Virus genome (UHGV): UHGV-0126577
Length of the DNA: 28,400 nt
Origin: a virus
Direction: 5' to 3' (one strand)
Numbering within the stretch: the stretch's first letter is position 1; each line of letters starts with the position of its first letter. The position numbers were made by a program, and so were the translations under genes. The notes under the pieces are model-generated. The model had not been told where the DNA came from, made no database searches, and saw only the letters and a list, made by a program, of their open reading frames with translations. Of this stretch, positions 17,611-19,842 are shown piece by piece.

Positions 17611-17624
17611 CGTGACATGTCACA
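17611..17624. repeat. Perfect palindrome CGTGACATGTCACA, copy 1
   Basis: The 12-bp core GTGACATGTCAC is its own reverse complement. An identical 14-mer occurs at 19829-19842. Confidence 0.8.
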
Positions 17625-17627
17625 ATC

Positions 17628-17652
17628 AGCCCGCCGATTCGCGGGCTTTTTT
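17628..17652 (+). terminator. Rho-independent terminator
   Basis: AGCCCGC-cgattc-GCGGGCT hairpin followed by TTTTTT. The T-run overlaps the terminase large subunit stop codon (convergent genes). Confidence 0.7.
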
Positions 17653-19126
17653 ATGCAAAAGGATCATAGTCTGTGATGGCTTTGCCTTGCTGGTTCTGCT
17701 GCCCGGGAATTCGCAGACGCTTCGACACAGGGAACGCAAACGTCAGCAGTAGCGCATCGCCTTTACCCGGCGAACGCCCAAGCCGCTCCTTGATATCTTC
17801 CTTCGGTTCGATAACGATTTTACCGTCCACACGAACTTTGTACTCTGCTGCCGACAGGTCGTCCGCTGTTTCCTGGTCATCCAGCATGCCGCCGAGCCTC
17901 AGCCATGTCTTGCATGAGTTGAACATCTCCCCACGCTTGTTAAGCATCTGCGGGTCAGTAGACGCGCCACCGAACGGAACAAGTTGCCATGTACGACCCC
18001 AGCCGTCACCGATTGACTTCAAACCGGTTCCGTAACCGAAGTCGATGAACACCGCGTCAGCCTGATACTGGTCTTCAAAGTCAGCGATACGCTTCGCCAT
18101 AATCAGATCGTCGGTAGTCTTGTTGCCAGTCCACAGCACCTTACTGTGTAGCCCCTGCCGCAGGTATATCACAGCGTCATCAACGCCGGAGTATGCCGGG
18201 TCAACGCCGATTATCACCGGAGCATGTGCAACCTGCGCAGCGGTTACCACCCGTTTCATTGCCTCGTCAGTAAGACCGGTAGGGATAAACTGCAATTCAG
18301 ATGCATCAGGGAATATGCCACGCACACGGATTTTAACGAAGTCGCTGTCTTCCCCGTAGTCATCAACCCATTTCTGCAACTGCTGTTTGTTGGTACCTTC
18401 CACCGTCCGACTGTCAATCTGCGCAGTTTTCCAGCGGTGTTTATACTTGCGGAAACATTCACGGAAACGTCCGGTATTACGCGTCGGGTTTCCGAACGCC
18501 ACCCAGATAATCTCAGTGTCTTCGTCCGTTAGCGCACCTTCGGCAACTTCCCACACCAGATCCGCAATGTTCGACGCTTCATCAAACACCACGATGATGC
18601 GTTTGCGCTCGTTGTGTAGTCCGGCGAATGCCTCAGTGTTGTGCTCAGACCAGGGGATTGCGTCAGCTCGCCACCGCTTGTCGTGTCCAGGATCATTGCT
18701 GTACATCGCGGTAGCGGTACAGGTAAACCAGTCTTTCGTGATAGCAAGGTTCGACCACTTGATAATTTCCGGCCAGGTCTTCGTTCGTAGCTGGTTGTCG
18801 GTGTTGGCGGTCACCACGACCTTACAATCCTCGCAAGTGGACATGCCCCAGTTGATCAGCATTGAGATGAATGCGGATTTACCAATACCGTGACCAGAAG
18901 CGCGTGCCAGCATAAGCGGCTGATAGCGCGTCTCTGGATTCTGCAGGTGATCACGTATCTCTCGGAACGCATCAGCCTGCCACTGACGTGGGCCGGTAGC
19001 ATGTGCCAGTTCAGTCCCCTCTTCCCCCCACGGGAACGCATAGAGGGCATAACCAAGCGGATCGTGAGTGAACCCTGCAATATCCTCGATCAACTGCTCT
19101 TCAGGAGATAACGCTGTATCTGTCAC
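17651..19126 (-). CDS. Terminase large subunit (491 aa)
   Basis: Walker A-like ...ARASGHGIGKSAF... and a nuclease-domain acidic block ...IGVDPAYSGVDDAV.... GTG start overlaps the small-subunit stop (GTGA). Confidence 0.85.
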   Translation of the reverse strand: MTDTALSPEEQLIEDIAGFTHDPLGYALYAFPWGEEGTELAHATGPRQWQADAFREIRDHLQNPETRYQPLMLARASGHGIGKSAFISMLINWGMSTCEDCKVVVTANTDNQLRTKTWPEIIKWSNLAITKDWFTCTATAMYSNDPGHDKRWRADAIPWSEHNTEAFAGLHNERKRIIVVFDEASNIADLVWEVAEGALTDEDTEIIWVAFGNPTRNTGRFRECFRKYKHRWKTAQIDSRTVEGTNKQQLQKWVDDYGEDSDFVKIRVRGIFPDASELQFIPTGLTDEAMKRVVTAAQVAHAPVIIGVDPAYSGVDDAVIYLRQGLHSKVLWTGNKTTDDLIMAKRIADFEDQYQADAVFIDFGYGTGLKSIGDGWGRTWQLVPFGGASTDPQMLNKRGEMFNSCKTWLRLGGMLDDQETADDLSAAEYKVRVDGKIVIEPKEDIKERLGRSPGKGDALLLTFAFPVSKRLRIPGQQNQQGKAITDYDPFA

Positions 19127-19719
19127 TGATTACCATCCTGACGTTCTTTGAGTCGCTTCCTGGCTGCCGCTATGCGATCAGCAATTGTCACATTCACATT
19201 AACATCCAGGCGTTCTTTGAATGCGTTGACGTCGACGTGCTTACCAATCAGTTCGAGGTTCTTCACCTTGTCAGGCCATTTAATTTTTTTGAGGATTGTC
19301 TCTATCGAATCCTCGTTCATGTTCATGATGGTCGATGACAGATCAAAGCCACTAAGCGTAGTGCGCCAGATTTTCGGCCACTCGCGGATTGGCTTAAGGC
19401 TCCCATCGTCGTTGAGGATATCAATCACGTCCATCTGGTCGATCTCCACCAGGCGCATGAGAACGTAATCGGCACTGACGCGCATTCGTTTGTTGCGCTC
19501 CTCCATCAACTCGGCAATCCGTTTTTGAATGCGTTCATCGCGCATCATGACACTGGCTTTAACTGCCGCTGTATTTGGGGAGAATCCTGCGTTAATCGCT
19601 GCCTGAGTCTGGTTTTCAGGCGTTTTGATGTATGACTGGCAATAAGCCTCCTGCATTGCGGTTAGTGGCTTAAATTGCGTTGATTTGCGTTTATAGGTTT
19701 TAGGTTCAGCAGGCATCAT
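19123..19719 (-). CDS. Terminase small subunit (198 aa)
   Basis: Lies directly upstream of, and is coupled to, the large subunit. The track ORF starts at a TTG at 19797; the tandem ATG at 19719 has AGGGTGG upstream. Confidence 0.65.
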   Translation of the reverse strand: MMPAEPKTYKRKSTQFKPLTAMQEAYCQSYIKTPENQTQAAINAGFSPNTAAVKASVMMRDERIQKRIAELMEERNKRMRVSADYVLMRLVEIDQMDVIDILNDDGSLKPIREWPKIWRTTLSGFDLSSTIMNMNEDSIETILKKIKWPDKVKNLELIGKHVDVNAFKERLDVNVNVTIADRIAAARKRLKERQDGNQ

Positions 19720-19761
19720 AACCACCCTGGTAATTGTTACCGTTGTGGTAATAGTACCATG

Positions 19762-19788
19762 CAAAATAAAGCCGCCATAGTTGGCGGC
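19762..19788 (-). terminator. Terminator-like hairpin upstream of the terminase operon
   Basis: GCCGCCA-n4-TGGCGGC stem followed on the minus strand by TTTATTTTG, about 45 nt upstream of the small-subunit start. Analogous in position to lambda tR-prime. Confidence 0.45.
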
Positions 19789-19828
19789 AGTATTCAAAAC
19801 CCATCAAATTCATCATGCATAATCTACT

Positions 19829-19842
19829 CGTGACATGTCACA
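19829..19842. repeat. Perfect palindrome CGTGACATGTCACA, copy 2
   Basis: Identical to 17611-17624. Overlaps the stop codon of the 19838..20176 gene. Confidence 0.8.

Follow-up and report, generated by a model that had tools for sequence, protein, structure and literature searches.

The locus described here raises the question of why one palindrome occurs twice in a virus genome, once on either side of the terminase genes. The window, i.e. the whole 28.4-kb stretch of DNA that was analysed, contains the 14-mer CGTGACATGTCACA in two exact copies when read on the + strand, and the perfect 12-bp palindromic core of this 14-mer is GTGACATGTCAC. Once the 14-mer is given, a second exact copy is expected by chance in 28.4 kb, both strands counted, with P ~2e-4. 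When up to two mismatches (<=2) to the 14-mer were allowed, five matches were observed in the window against 0.27 expected. None of 100 dinucleotide-preserving shuffles gave as many as five, which bears out the statement of an earlier sequence-only reading that two exact copies with a 12-bp palindromic core are beyond chance. A copy with one mismatch at positions 14521-14534 was rejected as a chance match; it lies within coding sequence, is shared only with a 99%-identical relative and does not occur in epsilon15. Matches to the 14-mer in IMG/VR were found in Q-like genes encoding VTCH or MRDMSQ and in GTGAC-rich repeat arrays; these are coding coincidences or remain unplaced.

Analysis of the source prophage revealed a third exact copy, ~590 nt outside the left end of the window, and epsilon15, PAS61 and SPN1S possess three copies apiece. 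The apparent bracketing of the terminase genes by a pair, as described in the sequence-only reading, is hence an effect of the window limits. The positions given there for the two copies were correct in essence. Copy 1 begins 3 nt past the TAA stop of the orphan gene (17605-17607, + strand) and ends 26 nt from the terL stop (17651-17653); it is placed between the stop of this convergent + strand gene and the orphan terminator. Copy 2 includes the TGA stop (19838-19840, - strand) of the gene for the Cys4 (gp49-like) protein, at the end of the early-right operon. The arrangement at copy 2 also occurs in epsilon15, PAS61, SPN1S and about 40 of 66 loci chosen for the gene. The position of copy 1 is kept in epsilon15, phiV10, PAS61 and SPN1S, and also in Citrobacter, Klebsiella and Scandinavium prophages. 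The features of the locus are listed in Table 1.

Table 1. Palindrome copies, genes and transcription elements at the terminase locus; positions are those of the window.
Feature	Position	Strand	Basis or remark
Palindrome copy 2 (site A)	19829..19842	.	Exact match; - strand reads TGTGACATGTCACG
Palindrome copy 1 (site B)	17611..17624	.	Exact match
gp49-like gene, 112 aa	19838..20176	-	PHROG 536; candidate binder of the palindrome
Mini-ORF MHDEFDGF*, eight codons	19794..19820	-	Between copy 2 and terminator
Rho-independent terminator	19763..19788	-	Terminator scan, RNA fold; GCCGCCAACTATGGCGGC then TTTATTTT
Operator-like repeats ATTACC-N5-GGTAA	19729..19758	-	Between terminator and terS; read directly from the sequence
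Terminase small subunit (terS)	19123..19719	-	Pfam Terminase_2
Terminase large subunit (terL)	17651..19126	-	PHROG 2 and PHROG 5902, annotated homologues
Rho-independent terminator, orphan (moron) unit	17628..17653	+	Terminator scan, RNA fold; 3 nt past copy 1
Convergent orphan gene (moron)	17185..17607	+	PHROG 4846; 3' end adjoins copy 1

The terminator on the - strand lies 40 nt 3' of copy 2 and 5' of terS, and it is an annotated terminator in epsilon15. The stop of the mini-ORF is 5 nt from the stem of this terminator; the mini-ORF is found beside the palindrome in 20 loci, where changes are synonymous and codon 2 is variable. The epsilon15 equivalent of the operator-like repeats is annotated as a repressor binding site. 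The ORF list has terS begin at a TTG (19797) on the far side of the terminator, while the terS of epsilon15 comprises 198 amino acids and its start lies past the operator; the ATG at 19719 is likely to be the true start. The terminator next to copy 1 has its T-run on the + strand only and is reported by the scan on the + strand only. The slot of the orphan gene is occupied by other genes in phiV10 and epsilon15.

The 112-amino-acid protein encoded next to copy 2 belongs to PHROG 536 (profile match, residues 5-114, E 5.6e-54), and a tblastn search with it recovered gp49 of epsilon15 and gp46 of N15. This family has more than 700 members, all annotated as hypothetical today, and is restricted to phages of Enterobacterales, Vibrio and Aeromonas. 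Four cysteines (C79, C82, C91 and C99) are invariant. The predicted layout of the protein begins with a basic helix at the N-terminus; a putative beta strand and two more helices follow, and a Cys4 motif forms the C-terminal part. Searches of Pfam, NCBIfam and PDB sequences gave no match for the protein and no DNA-binding domain, comparison with MatP and CopG by hhalign was negative, and a ribbon-helix-helix was not detected by Pfam or hhalign. AF2 models are of low confidence (pLDDT 62-66), and fold matches made with them may be meaningless. The literature search on N15 gp46 returned nothing.

The site was analysed in 66 loci of various Enterobacterales species, with the presence of a gene for a homologue of the protein (48-84% amino acid identity) as the sole criterion of choice. 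The 14-mer contains one version of a conserved 12-bp site, GTGAC-N2-GTCAC. This site was found 66 times, in 57 of the 66 loci, against a mean of 0.76 sites for 60 arm-permuted controls in the same loci; the spacings N1, N3 (that of matS) and N5 gave no site at all. In about 40 of the 66 loci the site lies within ~15 nt of the gene stop, and the TGA is usually inside the left arm. Besides this copy at the 3' end of the gene, a genome has one or two more. Both copies of the window are exact in epsilon15 too, despite ~80% nucleotide identity. The same linkage extends to distant phages: CGTGACTGGTCACG spans the stop of N15 gp46 (37% identity), TGTGACGCGTCACA spans the stop of the homologue in a P2-like Yersinia phage, and GTGACACGTCAC is located 226 nt downstream of the homologue in Vibrio phage K303. 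Both the gene and the site are missing from P2 itself. Linkage of site and gene is common to epsilon15-like, lambdoid, N15 and P2-like phages. The search of prophage and relatives for the 12-mer, a check suggested by the sequence-only reading, yielded a third copy in the prophage and a site conserved together with the gene across phage lineages.

Across loci and distant phages the arms of the site are invariant and the centre dinucleotide is variable. Within a genome the centre is uniform, with AT three times in epsilon15, PAS61 and SPN1S and TG three times in N15. Comparison of the centre dinucleotide with the putative DNA-reading strand of the protein revealed no clear covariation. Where the site occurs inside a ydaT-like coding sequence, synonymous positions are fixed and the flanks have diverged. 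The operator of a cis-encoded regulator, in generic terms, should co-occur with the gene across lineages, be absent without it and be bound by the protein; of these features, co-occurrence was found. Site and gene are very probably coupled in function. Our literature search found neither the motif nor its variants in a phage context, and the gene-plus-site module seems to be undescribed.

Analysis of the surroundings of the sites revealed that a terminator-like hairpin with a T-run starts within 60 nt (<=60 nt) of 30 out of 79 sites (38%), compared with 6.75% of random positions. In epsilon15-like phages, all three copies are found at 3' ends of transcription units: copy 2 belongs to that of the early-right operon, copy 1 to those of both the terS-terL unit and the convergent moron, and the third copy to that of the structural or ant unit, in each case with an adjoining intrinsic terminator; the third copies abut a terminator in epsilon15, PAS61, SPN1S and the source prophage. 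In many relatives other contexts are found, with the site directly before a ribosome-binding site, before xis-int or within a gene, and most sites are away from promoters. The palindrome itself does not behave as an intrinsic terminator, since its hairpin reaches only -2.7 kcal/mol, it has no U-run and separate terminators adjoin it.

Invariant arms, a variable centre and a weak RNA hairpin favour a DNA site for a dimeric protein, and the gene that accompanies the site offers the candidate. From these comparisons, the gp49-like protein probably binds the palindrome as DNA. A dimer of the protein would occupy the sites as double-stranded DNA and would act on elongating RNA polymerase at the boundaries of transcription units, the bound protein serving as a roadblock or insulator that strengthens the adjoining terminators. 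Some relatives have the site upstream within its own operon, and binding there would exert negative feedback on that operon. Such a roadblock or boundary effect on transcription is a tentative suggestion, and the reading as a whole, in which the palindrome would be the operator of the gp49-like protein acting at the ends of transcription units, is held with evenly balanced confidence. As a counterpoint, only 38% of the sites have a terminator nearby and most are not at promoters, so that a single mechanism may not fit all of them. A roadblock at copy 1 would, furthermore, also meet late transcription leaving terL; this could be tolerated only with a separate promoter for the structural genes downstream, and such a promoter is suggested by the epsilon15 annotation alone. 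A broader and rather doubtful extension is that of a portable module of temperate phages, common to epsilon15-like, lambdoid, N15-like and P2-like phages, in which a small, possibly MatP-like protein (ribbon-helix-helix plus Cys4) and its matS-like 12-bp sites would form protein-dependent boundaries of transcription units. Such boundaries might act as insulators, conditional terminators or antiterminators, with the first site built into the stop codon of the gene itself.

Some other explanations of the palindrome do not involve an operator. A pac-like recognition element for terminase, one of the suggestions of the sequence-only reading, agrees with the flanking of terS-terL by the two copies in the window and with a phiV10 record that begins inside the palindrome. 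That genome end is a record cut at the stop of gene 55, and the epsilon15 record starts elsewhere. A third copy is ~20 kb distant, and the site accompanies the gene in phages of the cos type (N15 and a P2-like phage); it is also found beside xis-int in prophages of lambdoid type and within ydaT-like genes, so that this role can be given hardly any credence. The idea of recombination boundaries around a terminase module held up in so far as homology breakpoints are located at the palindrome: homology with Salmonella, Klebsiella and Enterobacter phages begins at 17605-17611 of the window, one flank of the site varies strongly at each of the three slots, and the phage carries RecT/RecE-type recombination genes. 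The palindrome could then be mainly a junction with no regulatory role, either as microhomology or target for exchange of morons and modules or as the end of a mobile gene-plus-site cassette. A junction leaves unexplained, however, the exact conservation within ydaT coding sequence, the strict N2 spacing between invariant arms with a free centre, and the retention of the gene-site pair down to 37% protein identity. Conserved functional sites beside accessory DNA yield the same breakpoint pattern; the breakpoints are better explained by a conserved site flanked by variable moron DNA, and a junction without a regulatory role is improbable. At the RNA level, the transcribed palindrome might form a hairpin that is bound by the protein or cut by an RNase, with effects on translation of the next cistron or mini-ORF, on stability of the mRNA 3' end or on terminator formation. 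A role of this kind is conceivable because every site lies in transcribed DNA, often between cistrons and with a ribosome-binding site or start codon only 4-10 nt further on. It would also agree with the resemblance of the basic N-terminus to an arginine-rich motif, the Cys4 domain, the conserved mini-ORF between site and terminator and the stop codon within the element. On the other hand, the RNA hairpin has only 4 bp and folds no better than shuffled sequence, the arms lack compensatory changes even between very distant phages whereas the presumptive loop is freely variable, and Rfam gave no family, only a sub-threshold match to a Trp leader caused by the terminator. Taken together, this makes an RNA element quite unlikely.

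The remaining explanations accept a protein at the site and differ in its action or its identity. If the gp49-like protein at the palindrome altered the RNA polymerase that passes it, like a Q-type factor, or switched on a promoter overlapping the site, transcripts would continue past the adjoining terminator into terS and the late genes. Its gene is in the Q position, being the last early-right gene directly 5' of the terminator and terS, and sites A, B and C each lie upstream of a terminator in the working direction of that terminator. The site also offers a -35-like GTGACA, an 18-nt spacer and CATGAT, and in some relatives a promoter with a LexA box begins ~5 nt past the site. Neither Pfam nor NCBIfam revealed similarity between Q families and the protein, however, and a terminator follows the site only in some contexts; many relatives have the site before a ribosome-binding site or xis-int without a terminator, or inside ydaT or repA. 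At copy 1, antitermination would send moron transcripts antisense into terL. The -35 role proposed earlier for TGACA turned out to be weak, as the sole -35/-10 match is within shuffle expectation and a site before a ribosome-binding site or xis-int or inside a gene does not fit it; a promoter was rejected. Action of this type is unlikely. Alternatively, a host protein might bind the site, with the phage gene a mere neighbour. CRP requires TGTGA-N6-TCACA, and sites for CRP, LexA and FNR were rejected for wrong spacing or sequence. MatP, or some other factor found only in Enterobacterales and Vibrionales, comes closer: matS, the 13-bp GTGAC[AG]N[TC]GTCAC (PMC3603311), has the same half-sites, and the gene family is found only in phages of Enterobacterales, Vibrio and Aeromonas. 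The spacing is always 2 and never 3 (0 of 66 loci), however, and true matS sites are avoided by, and absent from, prophages (PMC3603311). The palindrome as matS was rejected on the same ground, its 12 bp having N2 and the N3 form being absent from the 66 loci and the window, and membership of the gp49-like protein in the MatP family was rejected for lack of sequence similarity (hhalign probability 0.1). Linkage in cis to one phage gene and uniformity of the centre within a genome (AT versus TG) point to a phage-encoded partner, and a host protein is highly improbable. The suggestion of a regulator site in the sequence-only reading is thus the one that the comparisons favour, with the palindrome linked in cis to the Cys4 gene family in epsilon15-like, lambdoid, N15 and P2-like phages and the gp49-like protein as its putative regulator.

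Should binding by the gp49-like protein prove true, it would constitute a new family of regulators for several well-studied groups, namely epsilon15 and phiV10, N15, P2-like phages and lambdoid prophages, with operators not at promoters but at stop codons and the ends of operons. It would bear on the separation of early and late transcription in epsilon15-like phages, for which neither a Q nor a late activator has been recognised, and on the insulation of morons from surrounding transcription. It would also bear on why prophages tolerate a matS look-alike one base shorter while matS is avoided. A hypothetical family of more than 700 members would gain a name and a testable function. In practical terms, the palindrome is most probably not a packaging signal.

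Several known systems were compared with the site and its protein. The pac sites of headful phages such as P22 and SPP1 resemble the palindrome in closeness to terS in the window, whereas its distribution speaks strongly against a role in packaging. The late antitermination system of lambda (Q, the Q binding site and tR') shares the order of last early-right gene, DNA site, terminator and then terminase or late genes. The gp49-like protein differs in having no Q homology and no convincing promoter between site and terminator; moreover, the phage site recurs at other unit ends and inside genes, and is also present in phages with a Q of their own (N15 gp40, AH07 gp52). In comparison with MatP/matS, where matS spans 13 bp around a centre of 3 bp, the phage site is strictly 12 bp long around a 2-bp centre and is phage-borne, at gene and operon ends; MatP ends in a C-terminal coiled coil and the gp49-like protein in a C-terminal Cys4 domain. 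The ribbon-helix-helix repressors (P22 Arc and Mnt, CopG, omega) have a fold that Pfam and hhalign did not detect in the gp49-like protein, which has an extra Cys4 domain and sites at gene 3' ends, not at promoters. For LacI, Abo and colleagues are said to have described in 2000 the operator O3 at the 3' end of lacI and autoregulation by a roadblock. The likeness consists in an operator that overlaps the 3' end of the gene for its own DNA-binding protein, putatively so for the gp49-like protein, and in binding that would halt RNA polymerase and limit both own and downstream expression. The difference is that the protein families are unrelated and that the arrangement described here, predicted in its action, is conserved across phage lineages and combined with intrinsic terminators.

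The 14-bp sequence CGTGACATGTCACA has two exact matches in the window, copy 1 and copy 2 (see the table). The sequence-only reading had described them as identical, self-complementary and beyond chance, and this is borne out: both matches are exact, the 12-bp core GTGACATGTCAC within the 14-mer is a perfect palindrome, and the window holds more matches than any shuffle of it did. The TGA stop of the Cys4 gene (19838-19840, minus strand), which encodes a four-cysteine protein, falls inside copy 2, and copy 1 lies 3 nt past the TAA of an orphan gene on the plus strand and 26 nt from the terL stop. 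A copy with one mismatch, GTGCCATGTCAC, in coding sequence at the start of a gp5-like gene, is probably due to chance, since it is kept only in the 99%-identical PAS61; it is absent from epsilon15.

The two copies had also been read as a pair bracketing the terminase genes. That description had to be abandoned, since the source prophage carries a third exact copy outside the window, after an antirepressor gene and adjoining a terminator, and epsilon15, PAS61 and SPN1S carry three exact copies each. In these three phages one copy is at the stop of gp49 (the homologue of the Cys4 gene) and one behind terL; the third, at the stop of the small gene that closes the structural operon, directly adjoins a terminator. 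IMG/VR loci with GGCCGC...GCGGCC-TTGTTTTT after the 14-mer represent this third site. A degenerate fourth palindrome-like sequence occurs where the lysis unit ends, at the stop of its Rz-like spanin gene, in SPN1S (GTGACATGTCAT, L201 26722) and epsilon15 (GTGACATGGCAT, L196 about 26617), and is absent in PAS61. Dense GTGAC/GTCAC repeat arrays of iteron-like appearance enclose the 14-mer in unrelated viral contigs (IMG/VR L024, L043, L053, L072, L110).

Positions of the palindrome copies and neighbouring features (window coordinates unless a record is named)
Feature	Position	Strand	Remark
Copy 1	17611-17624		exact 14-mer
Copy 2	19829-19842		exact 14-mer
One-mismatch copy	14521-14534		probably chance
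Third exact copy of source prophage	L203:8410-8421		about 590 nt left of window position 1
tRNA-Arg, anticodon TCT	16910-16986	+	upstream of orphan gene, strand opposite late genes
ORF matching PHROG 4647	16916-17167	-	overlapped by tRNA-Arg gene
Orphan gene	17185-17607	+	
Operator-like repeats ATTACC-N5-GGTAA	19729-19758	-	between terminator and terS
Mini-ORF MHDEFDGF*, eight codons	19794-19820	-	8 nt after copy 2; stop 5 nt before terminator stem

The window belongs to Uetakevirus (an epsilon15/phiV10-like phage or prophage), and E. coli OkiPb01683 carries a prophage 99.9% identical to it. The first 1.8 kb of the window, with genes for an Arc-family protein and an antirepressor, are immI-like and missing from epsilon15. 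The late genes are on the minus strand, where the end of the early-right operon (Eae, Ea22-like, DUF551, Cys4 gene) is followed by copy 2, the mini-ORF, a rho-independent terminator, the ATTACC-N5-GGTAA repeats, terS, terL, a hairpin and copy 1. The opposing plus-strand unit runs from tRNA-Arg through the orphan gene to copy 1 and a terminator; the hairpin next to copy 1 has a T-run on the plus strand only and thus ends the orphan unit, not terL transcription. The epsilon15 annotation marks the equivalents of the repeats, which precede terS, gp3 and the tail fibre gene, as binding sites of the prophage repressor; this suggests that the late units are driven by repressor-controlled promoters of their own. 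As listed, the terS ORF starts at a TTG (19797) upstream of the terminator, as it does in the annotations of PAS61 (position 12387 of its record) and phiV10, and its extension (19720-19797) overlaps the mini-ORF. Matching the epsilon15 start, the ATG at 19719 is more plausible as the terS start.

A scan of viral contigs revealed the 14-mer repeatedly at the 3' end of Cys4-gene homologues, followed by many unrelated sequences: a terminator and terS, a LexA-box promoter driving a UmuD-like or other small gene, a ribosome-binding site and small gene, or lambda-type xis-int. Selection bias was removed by choosing 66 loci from different Enterobacterales species by protein alone (48-84% identity). 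The site, GTGAC-N2-GTCAC, was found in 57 of these loci, with 66 sites in 770 kb; 59 other permutations of the arms gave a mean of 0.76 sites in the same loci, and spacings N1, N3 and N5 gave none. In about 40 of the 66 loci the site lies within roughly 15 nt of the gene stop, the TGA usually being inside the left arm. Most loci without a stop-proximal site have an exact copy elsewhere in the same operon, either between two cistrons about 1 kb upstream or, 3.4-4.9 kb upstream, within the 3' part of a YdaT-like gene (cII-equivalent, PF06254), whose (R/C)DMS codons retain the exact palindrome bases despite diverged flanks.

More distant phages gave the same picture. N15 gp46 (37% identity) has CGTGACTGGTCACG across its stop, one of three GTGAC-TG-GTCAC copies in that genome (28550, 33237 and 39269); the others lie within repA and in the gene 32-33 (anti-immunity) region. 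A P2-like Yersinia phage has TGTGACGCGTCACA across the stop of the gene after gpA, and P2 itself has neither gene nor site. The site lies between the gene and xis in Pantoea phage AH07, and 226 nt downstream of the homologue in Vibrio phage K303 (GTGACACGTCAC). By chance, the 10 specified bases would be expected about 0.04 times in a 40-kb genome. Site and gene are a conserved cis-linked pair, and the sites occupy the 3' ends of genes and operons or lie close to them. The N15 copy in the gene 32-33 region lies 24 nt upstream of a promoter-like TTGACG-17-TAGAGT. The 12-mer also occurs within Q-like antiterminator genes (AH07 L199 34430; IMG/VR L012, L059 and others), encoding either V-T-C-H of a CxxC motif or R-D-M-S, the latter at the N-terminus of 933W-type Q-like proteins; these occurrences may be real sites or coincidences of the coding sequence.

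Among the sites compared, the arms are invariant with no compensatory changes, and the central two bases vary (AT, AC/GT, CT/AG, TG, GC). The RNA hairpin is of 4 bp (-2.7 kcal/mol), no better than shuffles, and Rfam has no family at the palindrome. Judged from sequence, these features together are the signature of a putative DNA site recognised by a symmetric dimer of a protein; a role at the RNA level is less likely, though possible because every copy is transcribed. The candidate binding protein, the 112-aa Cys4 protein, is matched by PHROG 536, which bears the label "transcriptional regulator"; apart from that label its relatives in the databases, more than 700 of them, are all "hypothetical", and sequence searches of Pfam, NCBIfam and PDB gave no match even at E = 10. 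The family conserves a basic helix at the N-terminus (AERKAAQRARQ), the strand-like stretch KIELVLD with two helices after it, and four cysteines that never change. AlphaFold models from two runs reached a pLDDT of only 62-66, and Foldseek found no match.

A terminator-like hairpin lies within 60 nt of 30 of 79 sites, against 6.75% of random positions, and in epsilon15-like phages the sites stand beside intrinsic terminators. A Cys4 protein dimer would bind the sites and affect the elongating RNA polymerase, as a roadblock or an insulator. We give this overall reading, a candidate protein-site pair acting on transcription, about an even chance; the roadblock within it is put forward more tentatively. 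It is favoured because a reinforced stop would be sensible at each of the three sites of the epsilon15 type, where the early operon ends ahead of terS, where the moron opposing terL ends, and where the structural or ant unit ends, because upstream sites in the gene's own operon (ydaT, intercistronic) would yield simple negative feedback, and because a site over the gene's own stop codon has a parallel in the LacI-O3 arrangement. The opposite sign, Q-like read-through into the late genes, is a serious rival to which the position of the gene points, but antitermination at copy 1 would send moron transcripts into terL.

The cis link to the gene family favours the earlier proposal of a regulator site with the Cys4 protein as candidate. 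Its promoter component, TGACA as a -35-like element, is weak, since the sole promoter match is within shuffle expectation. A pac-like terminase element is not supported: cos phages carry the site together with the gene, it also occurs next to xis-int and within ydaT and repA, and the phiV10 "end" within the palindrome is the cut point of the record. The palindrome as a recombination junction between modules is a weaker alternative. Homology breakpoints do coincide with the site, but a conserved functional site beside accessory DNA yields the same pattern, and recombination alone leaves the strict architecture and the coding-embedded copies unexplained.

The mini-ORF peptide is kept through synonymous changes: 20 loci have M-x-DEFD-x-F* next to the palindrome, with differences at synonymous positions and in the second codon, which is variable. 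It accompanies the copy behind terL too in epsilon15, L116 and L132, lying immediately upstream of that copy in some relatives, and small genes in its slot in other relatives end in ...YDEFDGL*. The mini-ORF may be a translated leader modulating the terminator. A ribosome halted on it could hide the terminator, a hint of an attenuation-like layer that may cooperate with the palindrome.

Among the papers covered by our literature search, none has the motif or a variant of it in such a context, and none dealing with the protein family was found; an earlier mention in the key epsilon15 and SPC32H papers is possible. The palindrome is not among the annotations of the epsilon15 GenBank record, which include repressor, IHF, RNase III and terminator features. 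The putative regulator-operator pair is unusual in its placement at stop codons and operon ends. Its half-sites are the same as those of matS, the 13-bp MatP site GTGAC[AG]N[TC]GTCAC, a motif reportedly absent altogether from Escherichia and Salmonella prophages (PMC3603311). The phage site differs in being one base shorter, with no exception, and is therefore a look-alike only, a putative operator whose half-sites mimic those of matS.
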